A program made the translations under genes and the position numbers. Below, in pieces: positions 14,624 to 39,063 of a stretch of 63,511 nt of DNA (position 1 is the first letter of the stretch; every line of letters starts with the position of its first letter). Under the pieces are notes generated by a model that searched no databases, was not told the origin of the DNA, and saw only the letters and a program-made list of their open reading frames with translations. Origin of the DNA: Deltaproteobacteria bacterium (GTDB lineage Bacteria; Myxococcota_A; UBA9160; SZUA-336); contig JAFDDB010000005.1 of the NCBI GenBank assembly GCA_019311115.1, forward strand, positions 1 through 63,511, in the 5' to 3' direction.

Positions 14624-16114
14624 ATGACTCCGGCTCCCACGGAACTCCGGCACCGCGTCGACCTCCGCACGAAGATCTTCTTCGGCGTCGGCGAATTCGC
14701 GACGGCCACCAAGGGCTACGCGATGCACGCGTTCCTGCTGTTCTACTACACGCAGGTGCTCGGGCTCGAGGGCTGGCTCACGGGCTTCGCGCTCGGCATC
14801 GCGATCGTGTTCGACGCCGTCAACGACCCGATCGTCGGCTCGGTCTCGGACAACTGGCGCTCGAGTCTCGGCCGGCGCCACCCGCTGATGTGGATCTCGC
14901 TCGTGCCCATGTGCATCACCTTCTACTACCTGTGGATCCCGCCCGAGGGGCTCGGGCAGTACGCGCTCTTCGCCTGGCTCACGGTCTTTGCGGTGCTCGC
15001 GCGCTCGTTCATGACGTTCTTCCAGATCCCGCACAACGCGCTCGGCGCGGAGCTTTCGCCGGACTACAGCGAGCGCAGCCGCATCTGGGGCTTCGCTCAG
15101 CTCTTCGGCTGGCTCGGCGGCGGCAGCTTCGGCGCGTTCGCCTACATCGTGGTGTTCAAGAAGAGCGAGGCGTTCGAGAACGGGCTGCTCAATCCCGCGG
15201 CCTACCCGGACCTGGCGATGCTGGGCGTGCTCTACATCTTCATCGGCATCACGCTCTCGACCGCGTTCACGCAGCGGGCGGCGCGCGCGCTCCCCGAGAT
15301 CGCCGCGCCGAAGGAAGGTTTCAGCTTCCGCCGGCTCCACCGCGAGGGGAAGCAGGCGCTCCAGAACAAGAACTTCCGCGTGCTCTTCTTCGGCATCCTG
15401 CTCGGCGGCGCCATCGGTGGCATCGGCGGGACGCTGGCGCTGCACATGCAGACCTACTTCTGGGGCCTGCTGCCCGCGCAGATCATCTACTTCATCGCGG
15501 CCGGCTTCACGGTGAACATGCTGGTGTTCATCGGCATCCAGACCATCGCCGCGCGGTTCGAGAAGAAGAAGCTCCTGATCGGCCTGTCGATCTTCGCCAT
15601 GGTGGACTCCATCACCGTGATCAGCGCACGGCTCATGGGGTGGCTGCCCGACAACGGCGACCCGCTGCTGCTGCCGATCATCGTCACCACCTACGCGCTC
15701 GGCACGGCGGCCGGCGCCATCACGCACATCGTCGCGCGCTCGATGATCGCCGATGTCGTAGACGAGCAGGAGGTCGTGACCGGCGAACGACAGGAGGGGA
15801 TGTTCTACTCGGCGCTCGCGTTCTCGGGCAAGGCCGTGTCGGGCGTCGGCGCGATGACCGGCGGGTTCGTGCTGAGCGCGATCCAGTTCCCCAGCAACGT
15901 CGACGCCACGGGCGTGTCGGCCGACGTGGTCTTCCGCATGGGCGTGTTCATGGGGCCGATCCTGAGCGCCCTCTACCTGATCCCGATCGGGATCTACGTG
16001 CTCTACCACCTGGACCGCGTGCGCCACGCCGAGATCCAGCAGGTGCTGCACGAGCGGCGCCAGGCGCGCGTCGAGCCCGCGTCCGCGTCGCTGGCGGCGG
16101 CCGGCGGCGACTAG
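14624..16114 (+). CDS. MFS transporter, GPH/MelB family
   Basis: DAVNDPIVGSVSD...GRRHP, PHNALGAELSPDYSERS and GERQEGMF motifs. Confidence 0.92.
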   Translation: MTPAPTELRHRVDLRTKIFFGVGEFATATKGYAMHAFLLFYYTQVLGLEGWLTGFALGIAIVFDAVNDPIVGSVSDNWRSSLGRRHPLMWISLVPMCITFYYLWIPPEGLGQYALFAWLTVFAVLARSFMTFFQIPHNALGAELSPDYSERSRIWGFAQLFGWLGGGSFGAFAYIVVFKKSEAFENGLLNPAAYPDLAMLGVLYIFIGITLSTAFTQRAARALPEIAAPKEGFSFRRLHREGKQALQNKNFRVLFFGILLGGAIGGIGGTLALHMQTYFWGLLPAQIIYFIAAGFTVNMLVFIGIQTIAARFEKKKLLIGLSIFAMVDSITVISARLMGWLPDNGDPLLLPIIVTTYALGTAAGAITHIVARSMIADVVDEQEVVTGERQEGMFYSALAFSGKAVSGVGAMTGGFVLSAIQFPSNVDATGVSADVVFRMGVFMGPILSALYLIPIGIYVLYHLDRVRHAEIQQVLHERRQARVEPASASLAAAGGD

Positions 16115-21862: not shown

Positions 21863-23170
21863 TCAGTCGTGCGAGCAGGCGGGGCGCGCGTCGGTCACGC
21901 CGAAGCGCTCGGGGAAGCGGGCGTCGTACGCGATGGTGCCGCGCGACGGCGGGCCGAAGCGGTCGGGGTCGAGGGCGCGTAACGCCTCGGCGGCCAGGAT
22001 GCCGCCGCAGATCATGTTGGTGCCCGGCAGCGTCAGGGCCTGCGCCAGCGAGCAGGTGGCGCGGTCGCTCTCTTCGTCGGCCAGCTCGGCGAGCCGCGGA
22101 ATGCGGTGTGCCAGGCACGCCGTCTCGCCGGGCAAGTAGACGCGGTGCTGCGCCGCGAGCGGGGAGCTGCCCGCCTCGGCGAGCGGCACGCCGTCGGCTA
22201 GCGAGCAGTCGTTCAGGTAGCGGCGCGCGGCAAAGGTGTCGGGACAGGCGATGCGCAGCGACGGCCGGCCGAGCCGTACCAGCCGGTCCTCGTAGCGGAC
22301 CGGCATCGGCCGTAGGTCGACGCCGGCGTCGGTCAGGACCGCCAGCTTCTCCGCCATCACGACCGCCTTCGGCCGGCCGATGTCGTCGGCCGAGAAGGAG
22401 GGCTGGATCGCCAGGTTCTCGGGGCCCACCCGGTCGAAGTCGAAGATGCGCAGCTCGCAGCGGTCGCCGAGCAGCGGAGCCAGCGACTCCAGCAGGTGCG
22501 TGCCCACGCCGCCGGCGCCGATCACGTCGATGATCGCGTCCTCGACGAACGCGTCCTTCCAGTCGCTCGCGTCCGTGCCCGGCGCCGGCGTCCGGTCTTC
22601 GCCCGCCACGTCGAAGCGGACCTCGGCCGCGGCGGGCGCAGCGTCCACGAGCCGTCCCGCGCCGATCAGCGCCTCTTGGAGCAGCAGCCCCGCGGCGATC
22701 CGCGCGACCGGCGCGATGGGCTCGGCCGCGGTCCGGACGGCCGCGGCTTCGTCGACGGCCAGCGCCAGCATGGACACGCCGGTCGAGGTCCAGTCGAGCG
22801 AGGCGAACGCGCTCGTGTCGTTCGCGAAGTGGGCGCAGCGGCGGCGCACCTGGGGAGAGCTTCCCAGGTGCAGGACGACGCCGAAGGTCCCGTCGTCGGC
22901 GCGTCCCAGGTCGCCCAGGTACAGCGTGGGCATCGACTCGAACTCGGCTGCGGGCATCAGCGTCGACAGGTCGCCGACGGACGGGCCCGACGCGGCGAGC
23001 TGGACCTGGCCGAAGCCCAGCGCTTGCAGGCCGCGGCAGAGCGCCCACGCCGGGTGGTCCCACGGAAGGCCGCGAGGCGAGTCGTCGAGCACGACCAGCA
23101 CGCCGGTCTCGGCGATGCGCAGCGCGTCGGCGCCGGCCTGCGCCAGGCGGTCTTCGGGGCGGGCCGTCAC
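21863..23170 (-). CDS. E1-like ThiF-family adenylyltransferase with N-terminal degenerate ThiF-like domain (435 aa)
   Basis: GAGGVG (218-223), DFD..GPENLAIQ, IGRPK, CPDTFAARRYLND, candidate catalytic Cys373 (RATCS). GTG start overlaps the upstream TGA. Confidence 0.88.
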   Translation of the reverse strand: MTARPEDRLAQAGADALRIAETGVLVVLDDSPRGLPWDHPAWALCRGLQALGFGQVQLAASGPSVGDLSTLMPAAEFESMPTLYLGDLGRADDGTFGVVLHLGSSPQVRRRCAHFANDTSAFASLDWTSTGVSMLALAVDEAAAVRTAAEPIAPVARIAAGLLLQEALIGAGRLVDAAPAAAEVRFDVAGEDRTPAPGTDASDWKDAFVEDAIIDVIGAGGVGTHLLESLAPLLGDRCELRIFDFDRVGPENLAIQPSFSADDIGRPKAVVMAEKLAVLTDAGVDLRPMPVRYEDRLVRLGRPSLRIACPDTFAARRYLNDCSLADGVPLAEAGSSPLAAQHRVYLPGETACLAHRIPRLAELADEESDRATCSLAQALTLPGTNMICGGILAAEALRALDPDRFGPPSRGTIAYDARFPERFGVTDARPACSHD

Positions 23171-23919
23171 AGTGTCTCCGCGAGGGCAGGTGCGGGGGTG
23201 GGGTCGAACACGACCTTCTCGGCGATCTCCAACGCCAGCCGGCGCCGCAGCGCGTCGCGCTGCGACGTGGACAGGATGACGCGGCCGGCGCTCTCGAGTT
23301 GCGCGGGGATCTCGCGGACCTGGCGGCGGCCGCACATTGGACAGGTGTCGACGCGCGCCGCGTAGATCTCGTAGTCGCGCTCGCGGTTCACGATCAGCGA
23401 AAAGCAGACCGCGTACTCCTGGTGCAGGTTGCGGATCACGCCGCCGGTAAAGGCGGCGTCGCGCCAGAGCTGGACCATGCCCGCGCAGCCGCAGCGCGGG
23501 TGTCCGGGGCCGATCGGCACGGCCTCGGTCCAGCTGATCGCGGTGGACACCTGGTCGATGAACACGCCGGTCAGGAACTCGCGATCGACCACCGAGGCGG
23601 TGCACGGCCCGGGATGCCGGTGCACGAACGTGATCGGCACCAGGCGCCGCCCCATGCGCGCGGAGAGGGTCTCGATCTCGCGCCGCATCCGCAGCACGTC
23701 GTGCCCGGACTGCTCGACCGTCGAGACGGTCACGCGCTGGCCGCGCAGCAGCGGCGTGGCGATCACGTGGAACGGGTCGTCCTCGGTCGCCAGGCCGAGC
23801 ATCGCGTACTCGGACCTGGGGCTGGCGAAGTCGTAGGCCAGGATGTCGGCGGCCAGGAAGCAGCGCTCGAGCGCGAGCGCGTCGAATGACAGCGCGGCGC
23901 CTGCGTACAGGTCGAACAT
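23167..23919 (-). CDS. JAB/MPN+ (JAMM) metallopeptidase, 250 aa
   Basis: E37 (SEYAMLGL) ... H100-R-H102-x6-S109-xx-D112. ATG overlaps the upstream TGA (TGATG). Confidence 0.8.
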   Translation of the reverse strand: MFDLYAGAALSFDALALERCFLAADILAYDFASPRSEYAMLGLATEDDPFHVIATPLLRGQRVTVSTVEQSGHDVLRMRREIETLSARMGRRLVPITFVHRHPGPCTASVVDREFLTGVFIDQVSTAISWTEAVPIGPGHPRCGCAGMVQLWRDAAFTGGVIRNLHQEYAVCFSLIVNRERDYEIYAARVDTCPMCGRRQVREIPAQLESAGRVILSTSQRDALRRRLALEIAEKVVFDPTPAPALAETL

Positions 23920-24995
23920 CAGAACGGGACCTCCTCTTCGTGGCGCGCCGTGCGCTCGCGCCACATGCGGTGGAACTCCGGCCGGTCGGTCGCCAGGATC
24001 GCCCCGGCGTCGAGCCACTGGACGACGGCCTCGGCGTCGCTGAAGCGCTTCGACAGCAGGCGCTGGTACTGCGCGAGCGTGCCCATGCAGAGGCCGGCGC
24101 GCACCGGTTGGCCCGACCGTCCCCACAGGCCGCGCTCGCTGCGCGACAGCGACGGCGCGAGGGAAAGACGTTCGGCCCGGGTGCGGCCCCGCACGTTCAG
24201 CGCGACGAACACGGTCCCCTGTCCGGTGCGAACCGGCAGGGGACCGCGCACCAGCAGCCAGGACCCCCCGCAGTACTGGAGCTGGTGTTGGTCGTCGCGG
24301 TGGAAGACGCTGCGGCTGCCGCGTTTCTCGGGCTCGTACAGGCTGAGGATCGCGTGCACGGCGCCGGAGAACTCCTTCAGCCGCGTCTTCGTGCCCTCGT
24401 CGGACATCACCGCGACGCGCATGTGCGCGCGCAGGGCGACCCCCGCGCGACGGACGAACTCGTTCAGCGACTCGGTGCGGTCGAGGCAGTAGCGGTAGGT
24501 GTGGCCGTTCAGCTCGACGTGGAAGTCGGACTTCCGCTTGCGCGTGGCCCGCTCGATCGGGATCACCGACCGCGCCAGGATCGCGCACGGCGCGCCGAGC
24601 GACTCGGCGAGATCCTCGGCGTACGGCTCCAACGCCAGGTGGTCGTCGACCGCCGCCTCGAGCTCGCGGGCACGGCGCGCCAGTTCGTCGAGCGTCCCCG
24701 GCGCGCCCGCGGGGGGCGCGCCGGAGAGGGACTTCAGGTAGGGGAGCAGCTCCGCCAGGCAGAACTGCAGGTCGTGGACCCGGGCCAGCAGCGGCCCGGC
24801 GTCGCCGAGCACGTCCGGGTGGTACTGCGCGCGGCCGGGGCGGATCCCCGACACCGTCTGCGCGTAGTCCCCGACCGATCCGACGCGACGGACCTTCGCC
24901 TTGGGCCCGGGGCCCGCGGAGAAGACGCCCCCTTCGAGGAGGAACGTCCTTTCGCGCGGGCCGCGGGCGAAGCGCGGGCGTTCCAGGTCGATCAC
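23919..24995 (-). CDS. 358-aa protein with putative divergent C-terminal E2/UBC-like domain
   Basis: GTG start overlaps the upstream TGA; strong GC3 bias. Beta-rich segment, then GLCMG (Cys303), then an amphipathic helix (AEAVVQWLDAGAILA). Function inferred from context. Confidence 0.6.
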   Translation of the reverse strand: MIDLERPRFARGPRERTFLLEGGVFSAGPGPKAKVRRVGSVGDYAQTVSGIRPGRAQYHPDVLGDAGPLLARVHDLQFCLAELLPYLKSLSGAPPAGAPGTLDELARRARELEAAVDDHLALEPYAEDLAESLGAPCAILARSVIPIERATRKRKSDFHVELNGHTYRYCLDRTESLNEFVRRAGVALRAHMRVAVMSDEGTKTRLKEFSGAVHAILSLYEPEKRGSRSVFHRDDQHQLQYCGGSWLLVRGPLPVRTGQGTVFVALNVRGRTRAERLSLAPSLSRSERGLWGRSGQPVRAGLCMGTLAQYQRLLSKRFSDAEAVVQWLDAGAILATDRPEFHRMWRERTARHEEEVPF

Positions 24996-25351
24996 GCACC
25001 GCCCCCGCGGTAGCTCTCGGAGATCATGATCGTGTACTCGTCGGTGTCGGACTTCTGGTCGCCGCCGGGGCCGTGCACGACCGTGTCGTCCAGCGAGATC
25101 GGCTGCCCGGTCGCGCTCGAGCCCTGCACCACCTCGATGTCGATCTGGCGCGTGCTGCGCAGCACCTCGCCCACCACCGCGGCGGTGCGCGACGCCGGGC
25201 CGCGCACCTGGCGGCACTCGATCACGCGGTTTACGAGCTGGCGGGCCGACAGGCCCTCGACCGTTCGGCGAGCGAAGCGGCCACCGCAGCTGGCGCCGAG
25301 TCCGTAGGCCACGCCGATCGTGACCTCTCCGGGGGTCTTCGAAATCCTCAT
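24992..25351 (-). CDS. putative ubiquitin-like (beta-grasp) protein precursor, 119 aa
   Basis: Small first gene of the E2-like/JAB/E1 operon. Terminal strand YTIMISE followed by SYRGGGA; purine-rich RBS AGAGGCAGGA. Confidence 0.7.
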   Translation of the reverse strand: MRISKTPGEVTIGVAYGLGASCGGRFARRTVEGLSARQLVNRVIECRQVRGPASRTAAVVGEVLRSTRQIDIEVVQGSSATGQPISLDDTVVHGPGGDQKSDTDEYTIMISESYRGGGA

Positions 25352-25721: not shown

Positions 25722-26855
25722 ATGACCGGCGGGCAGGTGAGCGACACGACGGAGACGAGCAACGACGGCGGAACGGGGCGGGCCAAGGCCAGCGAAGAGG
25801 GGCGCAAGCCGCGGAAGAAGCGGGCCAACGCCAAGCGGGGCGACCTGGAGCGCCCCGAGCTCGAGGCGGTGGTCTGTGACTACTTCTGCCACCAGGGGCT
25901 GACGGCCCCGGAAATCCAGAAGAGCGTGCGCAAGGAGTTCGGCATCCGGATCACGCGCGAGGAGGCCTACCGCTTCGTGCGCAAGGCTGCGCGCAGCGGG
26001 TGGATCACGTACACGCCGCCGCAGGACTACGCCCTGCACCGCGGCATCAAGGAGCAGCGCTACCCCTGGCTGCAGGGTGTGTCGGTGGTCGAGACCGGCA
26101 ACTGCGAGGGCGTGGCGTCGCGCGGCGCGCAGATGCTGATGGAACTGCTGCAGCAGCACTACGCCGGCAAGGAGGTACACGTCGGTTTCTCCGGCGGATA
26201 CGGGCTGCGCAAGCTGGCGATGGCGTTCAGCCGCATGTTGCGCGAGCCGACCGAGCGGCTGCCGGAGCGCATCGTCTTCCACGCAATGGTCGCCGGCTTC
26301 GACGTCGACGAGCCGACCACCGATCCGAACGCGTTCTTCGCGTACTTCGTGCAGGATCCGGCGATGCAGGTCGAGACGTCGTTCGTCGGACTCCACGCGC
26401 CGGCGATGGCGCGCCCGGGTCTGCTCGAGGAGCTGACCGACCTGCCGGGCATCCGCGAGGCGTACCAGCGCTCGCACGAGATCAACGTGATCGTCAGCGG
26501 GGCCAGCTGCTGGAGCGACGACCACTCGCCGCTGCGCCGCTACCTCGACGTGGCGGGCGAGCCGCTCGGCGCCCTCGGAGAGGCGGGCTGCGTCGGGGAC
26601 TTCCTGTGGCAGCCGGTGGGCACCGAGGGTCCCCTCGAGATGGACACCGCGCTCAAGGCGATGACCCTCAAGCAGCTCGACGAGGTCGGCACCTTCGTCG
26701 AAGAGAAGAACCACGTGCTGCTCGTCGCCGGCCCGTGCAGCCAGTGCCACCATCCCAAGACCGAGGTCGTCAACGCAATCCTCAACCAGGACCGCCAGCT
26801 CATCACGCACCTGGCCATCGACAGCCGCTGCGCCCGCGACCTGCTCGCGCTCTAA
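25722..26855 (+). CDS. SorC/DeoR(CggR/LsrR)-family transcriptional regulator (HTH plus sugar-phosphate-binding domain)
   Basis: HTH-like QGLTAPEIQKSVRKEFGIRITREEAYRFVRKAARSGWI; VGFSGG, LHAPA, GCVGDFL and ITHLAIDSRCA motifs; GAGGAGGG RBS region. Confidence 0.8.
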   Translation: MTGGQVSDTTETSNDGGTGRAKASEEGRKPRKKRANAKRGDLERPELEAVVCDYFCHQGLTAPEIQKSVRKEFGIRITREEAYRFVRKAARSGWITYTPPQDYALHRGIKEQRYPWLQGVSVVETGNCEGVASRGAQMLMELLQQHYAGKEVHVGFSGGYGLRKLAMAFSRMLREPTERLPERIVFHAMVAGFDVDEPTTDPNAFFAYFVQDPAMQVETSFVGLHAPAMARPGLLEELTDLPGIREAYQRSHEINVIVSGASCWSDDHSPLRRYLDVAGEPLGALGEAGCVGDFLWQPVGTEGPLEMDTALKAMTLKQLDEVGTFVEEKNHVLLVAGPCSQCHHPKTEVVNAILNQDRQLITHLAIDSRCARDLLAL

Positions 26856-27296: not shown

Positions 27297-28088
27297 ATGA
27301 TCGAGGGCTACGCAGAGTCGGAGTTCACCTGGGACGGCGTCACGCGCCCGGTCTACCGCCGCGGGCAGGGGCCGGGCGTCATCGTCATGCACGAGATCCC
27401 GGGCATCCACCCCACGGTCATCCGCTTCGCGAACTGGGTGGTGGACGCGGGCTTCACCGTCGTCATGCCCGAGCTGATGGGCCAGGCCAACCGCGCAGTG
27501 ACTCCCGGCTACACGCTCGGCTCCATGCTGCGCGCCTGCATCCGACGCGAGTTCGCCGTGCTGGCTGCGCACCGGTCGAGCCCGATCACCGACTGGCTGC
27601 GCGCGCTGTGCCGCGAGACGCACCGGGACCTGGGCGGTGCGGGCGTCGGCGCGGTGGGCATGTGCCTGACCGGGAACTTCGCGCTCGCCATGATGCTGGA
27701 GCCGAGCCTGCTGGCCCCGGTGTTGTCACAGCCGTCGATGCCGTTCCCGCTCGGCAAGACGCGCCGGGCCGCGCTCCACCTGTCGCCCGAGGAGCTCGAG
27801 GCGGTGCGCGAGCGCGCGCGCCAGGGCTGTCCGGTGCTGGGACTCCGCTTCACCGAAGACCGCTGGGTGCCGCCCGAGCGGTTCGAGACGCTACGCCGCG
27901 AGATCGGCGACCGCTTCGAGGCGATCGAGATCGACTCGGCGGTGAGCCGGCCCAGCGAGAACCCGGCCGGACCGCACTCGGTGTTGACCGAGGACCTGCG
28001 CGACGAGGACGGTCACCCCACCGTCGCCGCGCGCGACCGCGTGCTCGAATTCTTGCGCGAGCGGCTCGTAGACGGCCCTCGGCCCTAG
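27297..28088 (+). CDS. dienelactone hydrolase family protein
   Basis: HEIPG, GMCLTG (Cys nucleophile) and HSVLT motifs. Confidence 0.88.
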   Translation: MIEGYAESEFTWDGVTRPVYRRGQGPGVIVMHEIPGIHPTVIRFANWVVDAGFTVVMPELMGQANRAVTPGYTLGSMLRACIRREFAVLAAHRSSPITDWLRALCRETHRDLGGAGVGAVGMCLTGNFALAMMLEPSLLAPVLSQPSMPFPLGKTRRAALHLSPEELEAVRERARQGCPVLGLRFTEDRWVPPERFETLRREIGDRFEAIEIDSAVSRPSENPAGPHSVLTEDLRDEDGHPTVAARDRVLEFLRERLVDGPRP

Positions 28089-36738: not shown

Positions 36739-39063
36739 ATGACGGACGAACACCAGCCGGCCGCAGCCGGCGAAGCTGCGCGGTCGCTGCCGCGCTACGC
36801 GCCCTATGCGGCCCTCTTCGCGCTGGCGCTCGCGGTGCGTGCGATCTACCTGCTCGAGTGGACGGGCTCGCCACTCTGGGACGTGCTGCTCGGCGACGGC
36901 CAGGGCTACGATGCGTGGGCCCGGTCGATCGCGGGCGGCGACTGGCTCGGGGACGAGGCCTTCTACCAGGCTCCGTTCTACCCCTACCTGGTGGGGATCC
37001 TGTACTCCATCACCGGTCCCTCGCCCGGCGCGCTGCGCGTACTGCAGATCATGCTCGGCTCCGCGGCTTGCGTCGGCATTGTCCTCGTCGGCCGCCGCTT
37101 CTTCTCGGAGCGCGTCGGCTGGTGTGCGGGCGTCGGCCTGGCGCTCTACGCGCCGGCCATCTACTACGAGGGCCTCGTGCAGAAACCCGCCCTCGGCGGC
37201 GCGTTGATGGTGTCGTCGCTGCTGCTGCTCGCAGAGTTCGAAGCGCGTCGGCGCATCGCCTGGATCGCCGGCGCTGGCCTGGTGCTGGCGGCGTATGCGC
37301 TGACGCGCGAGAACGCGCTGCTCCTGCTGCCGGTGGTGGCGGTCTGGCTTGCACTGCGGTTCCCGGACGAGCCCGTCGCGGTGCGTGGCCGCTGGGTGGG
37401 TGCGCTCGTGCTCGGCGCGGCGCTGCTGCTCGCGCCGGTGGGGCTGCGCAACCTGGCGGTGGGGGGTGGCCTGCAGCTGACCACCTCGCAGCTCGGGCCG
37501 AACCTGTACATCGGGAACAGCGAGGCGGCGACGGGCCGTTACGTGCCCCTGCGGCCGGGCCGTGGAAGCTGGCGCTACGAGCGGATCGACGCCACGCAGA
37601 TCGCCGAGGCCGACAGCGGCCGGGCGCTGAGCGCCGGCGAGGTGTCGAGCTACTGGACCGGCCGCGCGCTCGCCTGGATCTCGGCCGAGCCCGGCGCCTG
37701 GCTGGCGTTGATGTTCAGGAAGGGCTGGCTCGTGTGGCGCGCGCCCGAGCTGATCGACACCGACGCGATCGGCATGTACGCGGACCAGTCGTGGCTGCTG
37801 AGCGTGCTCGGCTGGCTGCTGCACTTTGGCGTGATCTTCCCGCTGGCCGCTCTCGGGGTCTGGCTGACGCGCCGCGAGCGCGGCCGGCTCTGGCTGCTCT
37901 GGGCGATCGGACTGGCCATGGCGGTCGGGCCGGTGGTCTTCTTCGTCAACGGTCGGTACCGCTACGCCCTCGTCCCCGTGGCAATCCTGTTCGCGGCGGC
38001 GGGCGCCGTCGAGGGCGTGCGGCTCCTGCGTGGACGCGAGTGGCGCGCCGCGGGAGTCGCCGCGGCGATCGTCGCGCTGGCCGCGGTGGTGTCGAACTGG
38101 CCGATGCGCCTCTACCCCGAGCCGCGCGCGGTCGGGTACTACAGCCTGGGGCTCGCTCTCAAGCAGCACGCTCGCCTCGACGACGCGTTCGACGCGCTGC
38201 AGACCGCCGAGGAGATGTGGCCGACGTCGCCCGACGTGCAGCTGCAGATGGGCACCGTGCTCCTCTCCCTTCAGAAGCCGCTGGACGCGACCCCCCACTT
38301 CGAGCGGAGTCTCGCCCTGTCGCCCGGTCAGGCCGACGCGCGCGTGGGTCTTGGCCTGGCGCTCGGCGCGCGCGACGACTTCAGCGGCTCGATGGCGAAC
38401 TACGCACGCGCGATCGAGATCGACCCGAAACACGGCGACGCGAACAACAATTTCGCGAACGGCCTGGCGCGGCAGCAGCGCTGGGGCGAAGCGATCGAGC
38501 ACTATCGCATTGCGGCCGAGGCGATTCCCGATCGCGCCGAGGTCCACCTGAACCTGGGAAACGCGCTGCTGCAGTCCGGCCAGCCGACCGAGGCGCTGGC
38601 CGCGTACCGTCGCGCACAAGCCGTGAGTCCCGCGTTGCCCACCGCGCGCTATACCGAGGCGCTGGCGCTTGACTCGCTCGGGCGGCGGGGCGCGGCGGCC
38701 CAGATCTTCGCCGACCTGCTGCGGCAGCCCTCGGCGCCGCAGTGGACGTTCTCACCGGACGTCATGTCGCGGCTGGCGGACTACCTGGCCACCTGTCAGG
38801 AGCCCGGGCTGCGCAACCCCGAAGAGGCCCTGAAGCTGGCGGAGACGGCGCGCAGGCTGGACGCGCCCGAGTTCCAGACCATGGTCGCGCGGGCGGCTGC
38901 GCTCGCGGCTGGCGGCGAGTTCGAGGACGCGGTCACGGTTTCCGACGCCGCGCTGCGGCTGTCGGAGGGTGCGGCGGTCCATCCCGACCGCGTCGCGCTC
39001 GCGCGCGAGCGGCGCGAGGCGTACCAGAACGGGCGGGCGGTCTACCAGGAGTGCGCGCCCTAG
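36739..39063 (+). CDS. GT-C (PMT/ArnT-like) membrane glycosyltransferase with C-terminal TPR repeats
   Basis: D...YDAWA, FYQAPFYPY, multiple TM segments, RYR, then TPR repeats (NLGNAL). Start re-assigned after GGAGG. Confidence 0.85.
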   Translation: MTDEHQPAAAGEAARSLPRYAPYAALFALALAVRAIYLLEWTGSPLWDVLLGDGQGYDAWARSIAGGDWLGDEAFYQAPFYPYLVGILYSITGPSPGALRVLQIMLGSAACVGIVLVGRRFFSERVGWCAGVGLALYAPAIYYEGLVQKPALGGALMVSSLLLLAEFEARRRIAWIAGAGLVLAAYALTRENALLLLPVVAVWLALRFPDEPVAVRGRWVGALVLGAALLLAPVGLRNLAVGGGLQLTTSQLGPNLYIGNSEAATGRYVPLRPGRGSWRYERIDATQIAEADSGRALSAGEVSSYWTGRALAWISAEPGAWLALMFRKGWLVWRAPELIDTDAIGMYADQSWLLSVLGWLLHFGVIFPLAALGVWLTRRERGRLWLLWAIGLAMAVGPVVFFVNGRYRYALVPVAILFAAAGAVEGVRLLRGREWRAAGVAAAIVALAAVVSNWPMRLYPEPRAVGYYSLGLALKQHARLDDAFDALQTAEEMWPTSPDVQLQMGTVLLSLQKPLDATPHFERSLALSPGQADARVGLGLALGARDDFSGSMANYARAIEIDPKHGDANNNFANGLARQQRWGEAIEHYRIAAEAIPDRAEVHLNLGNALLQSGQPTEALAAYRRAQAVSPALPTARYTEALALDSLGRRGAAAQIFADLLRQPSAPQWTFSPDVMSRLADYLATCQEPGLRNPEEALKLAETARRLDAPEFQTMVARAAALAAGGEFEDAVTVSDAALRLSEGAAVHPDRVALARERREAYQNGRAVYQECAP

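Follow-up and report, generated by a model that had tools for sequence, protein, structure and literature searches.

The window analysed here is positions 1-63,511 (forward strand) of contig JAFDDB010000005.1 from a Deltaproteobacteria bacterium (GenBank assembly GCA_019311115.1; GTDB phylum Myxococcota_A). Four genes on its minus strand encode, in this order, a small ubiquitin-like protein (Ubl), a protein that we refer to as X, a JAMM/JAB-type metallopeptidase (JAB) and an adenylating enzyme resembling ubiquitin-activating enzymes (E1) (Table 1). Each gene starts on the stop codon of the preceding one, with the overlaps GTGA (Ubl/X), TGATG (X/JAB) and GTGA (JAB/E1, in which GTG is the E1 start), and the four genes form a translationally coupled operon, Ubl-X-JAB-E1. 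The original prediction, made from the sequence of the window, had described X as an unannotatable protein that may be a highly diverged ubiquitin-conjugating enzyme (E2) with a large N-terminal module, and had suggested that this extension of ~220 aa could choose substrates in place of a ubiquitin ligase (E3). Here, we evaluate this proposal.

Table 1. Features of the Ubl-X-JAB-E1 operon and the divergent gene beside it, in window coordinates.
Feature	Position	Strand	Remarks
Gene 1, Ubl	24992..25351	-	119 aa; ends ...SESYRGG, then a two-residue tail, GA
Gene 2, protein X	23919..24995	-	358 aa, GTG start; proposed E2-type Ubl-conjugating enzyme
X residues 1-199, N-terminal module	24398..24995	-	beta elements 16-39 and 137-169; helices 41-133 and 177-197 (predicted)
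X residues 200-358, UBC-like core	23922..24397	-	AlphaFold2 model
Cys303 codon of X	24087..24089	-	proposed thioester-forming Cys; C in 47/48 homologues
Gene 3, JAMM/JAB-type metallopeptidase	23167..23919	-	250 aa; JAMM residues invariant
Gene 4, E1-like adenylating enzyme	21863..23170	-	435 aa; Pfam ThiF 3.3e-26
Divergent gene, no recognised family	25722..26855	+	377 aa; no Pfam match

The partners of X carry the marks of a conjugation pathway to differing degrees. In four orthologues, the C-terminus of Ubl reads invariantly S-E-x-Y-x-G-G, with 0-3 residues after GG; we infer a beta-grasp fold for Ubl, rather than assign it, because the protein has neither a Pfam match nor a significant match in the Protein Data Bank (PDB). 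JAB, likewise without a Pfam match, keeps residues E39, H102-x-H104, S111 and D114 (numbering of a 252-aa reference) in all five orthologues, and in a profile comparison by hhalign with BilC of plasmid pNGR234a its HxH..S..D block falls on that of BilC (Prob 35, E 4e-4). JAB is probably the enzyme that trims Ubl at its tail and takes conjugates apart. E1 consists of about 200 residues without a recognised family followed by a ThiF-type adenylation domain, with an invariant GxGGxG motif and two invariant cysteines beyond the adenylation core; its N-terminal and C-terminal halves, compared by hhalign, gave Prob 0.8. Against solved proteins, the E1 profile scored 8e-17 for UBA3 (NEDD8 E1), 3.6e-15 for UBA2 (SUMO E1), 6e-14 for MoeB, 5e-11 for ThiF and 1.1e-4 for BubCD, placing it, by sequence, closer to the eukaryotic NEDD8/SUMO E1s than to MoeB. 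The Gly-Gly end of Ubl, the invariant JAMM residues and the E1 cysteines fit a thioester relay that needs an acceptor, as does the closeness of E1 to the NEDD8/SUMO E1s. No other E2 was found in the window's genome (93.8% complete), where no valid match emerged for UQ_con or for Prok-E2_A, B, D and E. One sub-threshold match to Prok-E2_E (20.6 bits; contig C185, 22186-22356, locus L010) was rejected: it lies in the wrong frame, on the strand opposite to a long open reading frame (ORF) that is rpoN-like from its sequence.

The arrangement recurs elsewhere. X-JAB-E1 is present in all five loci examined, namely the window, two metagenome contigs, one Myxococcota metagenome-assembled genome (MAG) and one Pirellulales MAG, which represent at least three phyla. 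Four of the five loci also contain the Ubl gene; at the remaining one (L003), the 450 bases upstream of X show no listed Ubl gene. Two of the 77 homologue clusters are X-JAB fusions, in which residues 414-605 (P0017) and 391-618 (P0065) match the JAB of the window at E 2e-52 and 4e-42, respectively. The four-gene order, shared by the window and three other loci, is that of Bil operons, Ubl-E2-deubiquitinase (DUB)-E1, formed by BilA (Ubl), BilB (E2), BilC (JAB) and BilD (E1) (10.1101/2023.09.26.559546). The X gene occupies the exact E2 position of these operons.

The ORF proposed for X proved to be real. Its GC content at third codon positions is 0.942, compared with 0.737 and 0.508 for two overlapping long ORFs in other frames, and it has homologues in 77 clusters; therefore, we took it to be the true coding frame. 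The motifs that had been read by eye also lie where they were placed: LDELARRARELEAAVDD spans residues 102-118, HQLQY 237-241, WLLVRG 246-251, VFVALNV 262-268 and GLCMG, at window positions 24095-24081, residues 301-305. The term unannotatable holds as well, as no family of Pfam, PADLOC, PHROGs or NCBIfam covers X members. For X itself, Pfam gave CHAD alone, below threshold (E 0.01; 16.2 bits, cut-off 25.6), and PADLOC gave no match. A word-index search with X yielded six matches, all from the X family, and a search with residues 200-358 among shorter proteins matched nothing. The best match of a C-terminal profile was PDB chain 9d80_C, a 'Tail protein' (E 0.26, not significant), which we took as chance; the literature yielded nothing of relevance on this entry. 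This chain shares C-M-G-x3-Q-Y and the following A-T with X residues 303-340; Bil systems target phage tail proteins.

An exhaustive HMMER search of 1.84 billion cluster representatives retrieved 77 relatives of X at E<=1e-3; of these, 66 reach E<=1e-10 and 36 reach E<=1e-30. Most are 330-400 residues long and can be aligned over their whole length. A 48-row alignment was assembled from X and 47 of the other 76 representatives, all near-full-length; fragments, the two fusions, P0072 and P0002 (99% identical to X) were left out. The X family is very rare and patchy. Among 401 genomes of the window's phylum, it occurs in the window's genome alone, beyond one short match of 78 residues with an internal stop (E 7.4e-4), and among 291 Planctomycetota genomes it was found in one already known genome. 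Searches with X by tblastn against phage and plasmid records returned none, nor did searches of viral contigs with X and with E1. In a word search of sequencing runs, the best DNA run contained a fraction of 0.47 of the words and the remaining ones 0.05-0.17; no RNA run was listed.

Conservation within the family centres on Cys303, which is retained in all but one of the 48 near-full-length homologues, the sole exception being P0081, the most distant row. The residue is also invariant in a 12-row C-terminal alignment and present in both X-JAB fusions. It sits within a G-x-C-M-G-x3-Q-Y motif, and residues 301-340 are the best-conserved block of X (lowest column entropy 1.73). In the C-terminal part, G305 and Q309 are each kept in 47/48 rows, W291, R273 and G270 in 46/48 and Y310 in 43/48; the N-terminal part keeps L83 (48/48), P136 (47/48), F78 and P146 (46/48) and, as a conserved position, L87. 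No His is invariant; H237 is kept in 40/48 rows and H342 in 36/48. Of the two parts of X, the N-terminal one is the faster-evolving: mean pairwise identity is 19% over residues 1-70 and 23% over residues 71-200, compared with 34% over the C-terminal 158 residues.

We then modelled full-length X with AlphaFold2 on the 48-row alignment, which replaced a crude propensity-based estimate of secondary structure. The model has a mean predicted local distance difference test score (pLDDT) of 90.3 and a predicted template modelling score (pTM) of 0.84, and it agrees with the helix and strands recognised by eye in the original prediction (helix 100-119; strands 237-242, 245-254 and 261-267). Behind the N-terminal module, the predicted core begins with helix 200-218 and four antiparallel strands (228-233, 237-242, 245-254 and 261-267). 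These are followed by a short helix and a strand, a long loop with Cys303 (residues 285-306, between strand 282-284 and helix 307-313), and helices 307-313, 320-336 and 340-355. In the model, the order of elements in residues 200-355 is like that of the ubiquitin-conjugating (UBC) fold.

Foldseek's top 992 chains were re-aligned to the X model, and the figures given here come from the best 50 of these 992. Among the best 50, 14 chains reach past model residue 320, and 8 of the 14 come from entries titled E2 or E2 complex: 8oif_L (4.8), 9sdx_G (4.5), 4ddg_A (4.3), 8se9_C (4.3), 1wzv_A (4.1), 7b5l_D (4.1), 9jtc_B (4.0) and 5hpt_C (3.8). For 8oif_L, 8se9_C, 9jtc_B and 7b5l_D, the chain was taken to be the E2 from its length and aligned range. 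Each of these alignments covers 100-112 residues at a root-mean-square deviation (rmsd) of 3.7-8.6 Å, with the chains starting at residue 1-3. On the side of X, the first aligned residue is one of 72-76 of the model, within the conserved helix 73-91 that bears F78, L83 and L87; the N-terminal part is therefore not a loose appendage, and these alignments suggest that helix 73-91 packs on the sheet at the position of the first UBC helix. Furthermore, when the Atlas was searched with a language model using residues 222-358, the three best named clusters carried Prok-E2_D, and the ten best family-bearing matches shared the family or clan of the top one. The scores of this search (0.84-0.86) are a lead only, as shuffled sequences often reach that range. 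The same search with whole X gave scores of 0.79-0.82, at noise level.

On this evidence, we put the probability at roughly 0.6 that X is a UBC-like E2, highly diverged, into which an N-terminal module is integrated; it would take Ubl on Cys303 and conjugate it without an E3. The E2 reading of the original prediction is partly supported, being compatible with every test run and proven by none: the conservation of Cys303, the operon position, the order of elements and the E2-biased structure matches speak in its favour, but a significant Foldseek or profile match is missing. Several results weigh against it. With the X model, Foldseek found no match at E<=0.001, either in the PDB, where MutS came closest (0.1), or in BFVD, where the lowest E was 0.028, and the structure alignments, which give residue ranges and no residue pairs, do not bear on a superposition of Cys303 on the E2 Cys. 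Three sequence and profile searches of the PDB matched no E2, a C-terminal profile search of a 5.8-billion-protein set returned X-family members alone (6), and 12 C-terminal domains of the family gave no E2 family in Pfam at E<=10. Among the 48 members, neither an E2 nor a recurrent family emerged from Pfam, PHROGs and NCBIfam (E<=1) or PADLOC (E<=10). Cys303 lies 36 residues past strand 4, farther than in canonical E2s, and the His found downstream of the Cys in E2-like proteins of the 6d operons discussed below has no strict counterpart in X, in which H342 is the variable residue noted above. Finally, as had been stated originally, no HPN or HPH motif precedes the Cys: neither occurs in residues 268-302, between strand 261-267 and Cys303. 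The absence of HPN is not decisive, because several bacterial E2-like families also lack it (Iyer 2006, PMC1779556).

The alternative that survives best, though we consider it unlikely, is that X is a non-catalytic adaptor, a pseudo-E2 like ubiquitin E2 variant (UEV) or RWD proteins, which would hold E1, Ubl or a target while E1 conjugates directly, as in archaeal SAMP systems, which are not known to use an E2. The fold evidence for X is weak and silent on chemistry, X has neither an HPN motif nor an invariant His, and inactive E2-like domains have been described for other Ubl operons of bacteria (Iyer 2006, PMC1779556). Nevertheless, if X were non-catalytic, there would be little reason for it to keep a Cys so strictly within its best-conserved block, and the inactive RWD-like bacterial domains described by Iyer et al. 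(PMC1779556) are without that Cys. Slightly less likely still, X could be another Cys enzyme, for instance a peptidase or amidase of the permuted papain-like or NlpC/P60-like kind, acting as a second deconjugating or processing enzyme. Permuted papain-like folds have a beta-meander and then a helix that starts with the nucleophile, a layout that X may resemble, as Cys303 stands four residues ahead of helix 307-313 and after the meander bearing H237. A second protease besides JAB is known from Bub operons (10.1101/2024.11.21.623953). However, the lack of an invariant His argues against a Cys-His hydrolase, and no Asp or Asn partner is invariant either. No peptidase appears among the structure matches covering the C-terminal part (best 50 of 992), in which E2s recur, nor does Pfam assign a peptidase family to X members. 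A hydrolase would also leave the operon without an acceptor for the E1 thioester.

A sensor, regulator or preferred target of the pathway, for example one that is tagged itself or gates E1, would suit a protein whose large N-terminal module belongs to no assigned fold class, but we regard this role as improbable. X is fused to JAB in two clusters and keeps a strict gene order with overlapping start and stop codons; its most conserved part is the Cys block, not a surface patch, and its structure matches are biased to E2s. Most improbable of all, the operon could be a pathway for a sulfur carrier or a cofactor (of the ThiS/MoaD-ThiF/MoeB type, and with a JAB), X being accessory to that chemistry: a ThiF-family E1, a small GG-ending protein and a JAB are also found together in operons for sulfur transfer (Iyer 2006, PMC1779556, rows 4c-4e of Table 1), but Pfam sees ThiF alone and no rhodanese domain in E1, cysteine synthase and molybdenum cofactor (Moco) or thiamine genes are absent from the operon, the E1 profile favours NEDD8/SUMO E1s over MoeB and ThiF, and a rare, patchy family is unlike housekeeping cofactor genes.

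If X is the E2 of this operon, the pathway would run as follows. JAB would first trim the short Ubl tail and expose the Gly-Gly end, which E1 would adenylate before taking Ubl onto one of its conserved cysteines. Ubl would then be handed to Cys303 of X as a thioester, and X, needing no separate E3, would attach it to lysines on its targets; the JAB peptidase could undo the mark. The N-terminal module, whose helix 73-91 would pack on the core, may bind E1, targets or both.

Beyond gene order, X and its partners share further features with Bil systems. The Ubl tail would need trimming to expose Gly, as the Bil report describes for Bil, and neither has an E3 gene; both E1s have a long N-terminal region ahead of the active adenylation domain, and X, like BilB, is without an HPN motif. 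The X motif L-C-M-x-G...[E/Q]-Y around the Cys resembles that of type II BilB. When the C-terminal alignment of X was compared by hhalign with BilB of pNGR234a, GLCMGTLAQY was laid over flcmagvrey, Cys on Cys, with Q309 and Y310 opposite the Glu and Tyr downstream of the Cys in BilB; this alignment is not significant (Prob 0.29). There are also differences. PADLOC models of BilA, BilB and BilC found no match, and E1 reached BilD only at E 0.0034; against the type II proteins of pNGR234a, hhalign gave Prob 13 for E1, 35 for JAB, 0.1 for Ubl and 0.29 for X. With its 200-aa N-terminal module, X (358 aa) is about 150 residues longer than BilB of pNGR234a (205 aa; the PADLOC BilB model has 159 positions), and the solved structure of BilB aligns with eukaryotic E2s over 93-99 residues at 3.0-3.4 Å (10.1101/2023.09.26.559546). 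The CEHH spacing reported for type II (Cys, +6 E, +8 H, +13 H) is not found in X, which reads C-M-G-T-L-A-Q-Y-Q-R-L-L-S-K from the Cys onwards: position +6 is Q, and neither +8 nor +13 is His. The window's genome also lacks PF14459, which, contrary to what it is called, corresponds to type II BilD's inactive adenylation domain (Chambers et al.). Lastly, the window locus lies among genes that look metabolic by eye, with no evident defence island.

The same set of activities is assembled in 6d operons, which comprise a Ubl, a rapidly diverging, 'largely alpha-helical' protein, an E2-like protein that has a Cys but not the classical His, a JAB and an E1 (PMC1779556). X resembles the helical and E2-like proteins of these operons joined end to end, with a faster-evolving helical N-terminal part and a Cys-bearing C-terminal part, and could be a fusion of the two. 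In the window, however, they would be one fused gene, whereas 6d has two, and H342 of X is far from strict, whereas the His downstream of the Cys is described as 'absolutely conserved' in 6d E2-like proteins (Iyer et al. 2006, PMC1779556). We equate Prok-E2_D with 6d because Bacteroides thetaiotaomicron, listed under 6d (PMC1779556), was the sole control genome matching PF14460; this equation is our inference. The hidden Markov model of Prok-E2_D (PF14460) matched none of the 48 X members and was found in 0/401 genomes of the window's phylum and 0/301 Myxococcota. Similarly, PF14461 was found in 0/301 Myxococcota, and PF14456 (alpha-hel2) was not found in three genomes.

Bub operons are more distant. 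These 6E/DUF6527 systems encode BubA (Ubl), BubB (E2), BubC (JAB), BubD (E1) and BubE (protease), and act through Ser/Tyr oxyesters, with E1 and E2 devoid of catalytic cysteines (10.1101/2024.11.21.623953). In contrast, X and its E1 keep their cysteines, the operon has no DUF6527 gene (none of its four proteins matches that family in Pfam), and the fusion seen joins X, the proposed E2, to JAB, not Ubl to E2 or JAB to E1. With the eukaryotic E2s UBE2L6/UbcH8, UBE2L3/UBCH7, UBE2D2/UbcH5b and Pex4p, the model of X would share a helix, the four-strand meander, the Cys loop and the helices that follow, over the aligned lengths and rmsd range given above. It differs from them in the missing HPN, the longer loop before the Cys and the 200-residue N-terminal module, and has no sequence similarity to them.

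These comparisons allow a further, more doubtful proposal, namely that the operon belongs to a third, 'type III Bil-like' lineage, in which an E2 absorbed a second protein to become a single-chain E2/E3 hybrid whose fast-evolving N-terminal module chooses targets. The absorbed protein would perhaps be the alpha-helical partner of 6d operons, and helix 73-91 would replace the canonical first UBC helix.

Few bacterial Ubl-conjugation pathways have been described, namely type II CBASS (an antiphage signalling system based on cyclic oligonucleotides), Bil types I and II and Bub types I and II, and such pathways have been used to argue for a bacterial origin of ubiquitination. In Pfam, PADLOC, PHROGs and NCBIfam, nothing recognises Ubl, X or JAB, and E1 is recognised by its ThiF domain alone; consequently, defence-finder and annotation models miss this system entirely. 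A literature search found no description of the X family, although an earlier listing is possible in subscription journals or in the supplementary operon tables of Bil and Bub studies. Should X prove to be a working E2, the UBC fold would span more sequence space than is known at present, and Ubl conjugation would extend to uncultured lineages, including Myxococcota and Pirellulales MAGs. X would then also be a natural E2 with a built-in module, which could show how targets are chosen without an E3; known bacterial E2s have no N-terminal module such as that of X.

Additional observations concern JAB and the pNGR234a comparator. After the JAMM motif, JAB has an insertion (residues ~140-200) with invariant C147, C195 and C198 (252-aa reference numbering), and its profile weakly touches the zinc-ribbon ribosomal protein L44e (E 0.28); by sequence, the insertion may be a zinc ribbon. 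Among five rhizobial plasmids, pNGR234a alone carries a type II Bil operon, the source of the BilB used for comparison; pSymA has no PF14459, and tblastn searches of plasmids with E1 gave none at 1e-8 and three MoeB-like matches at 1e-2. The Bil genes of pNGR234a (393800-398800; L018) are annotated as DUF2604, 'putative metal-binding protein', Mov34/MPN and 'E2 ligase fold family C protein', so that the Bil E1 is mislabelled as an E2 and the Bil E2 as a metal-binding protein. This operon adjoins a VapC/StbC toxin-antitoxin pair.

The gene divergent from the operon (Table 1) is 50% identical (E 2e-132) to a counterpart in the Myxococcota MAG (L005, 478-1611, minus strand), which occupies the same divergent position beside the operon; two other loci (L006 and L004) have different genes there. 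It may be a dedicated regulator of the operon. Judged by eye from ORF translations, the neighbours between window positions 16000 and 33000 look metabolic, with sulfatase-like, nitronate monooxygenase-like, enoyl-CoA hydratase-like, NUDIX, carboxylesterase-like and glutathione S-transferase (GST)-like types, and no mobile-element or defence gene is evident in that interval. Because the flanks are metabolic-looking genes and a putative divergent regulator, not defence genes, a further part of the doubtful 'type III Bil-like' proposal is that the proteins tagged may be those of the host, under a regulated response to stress, and not those of phages. The window holds one tRNA (37993-38088). Genes that by eye are dienelactone hydrolase-like lie within 2-3 kb of the operon both in the window (27297-28088, plus strand) and on an unrelated metagenome contig (L004, 2737-3645, minus strand), which may be a coincidence.

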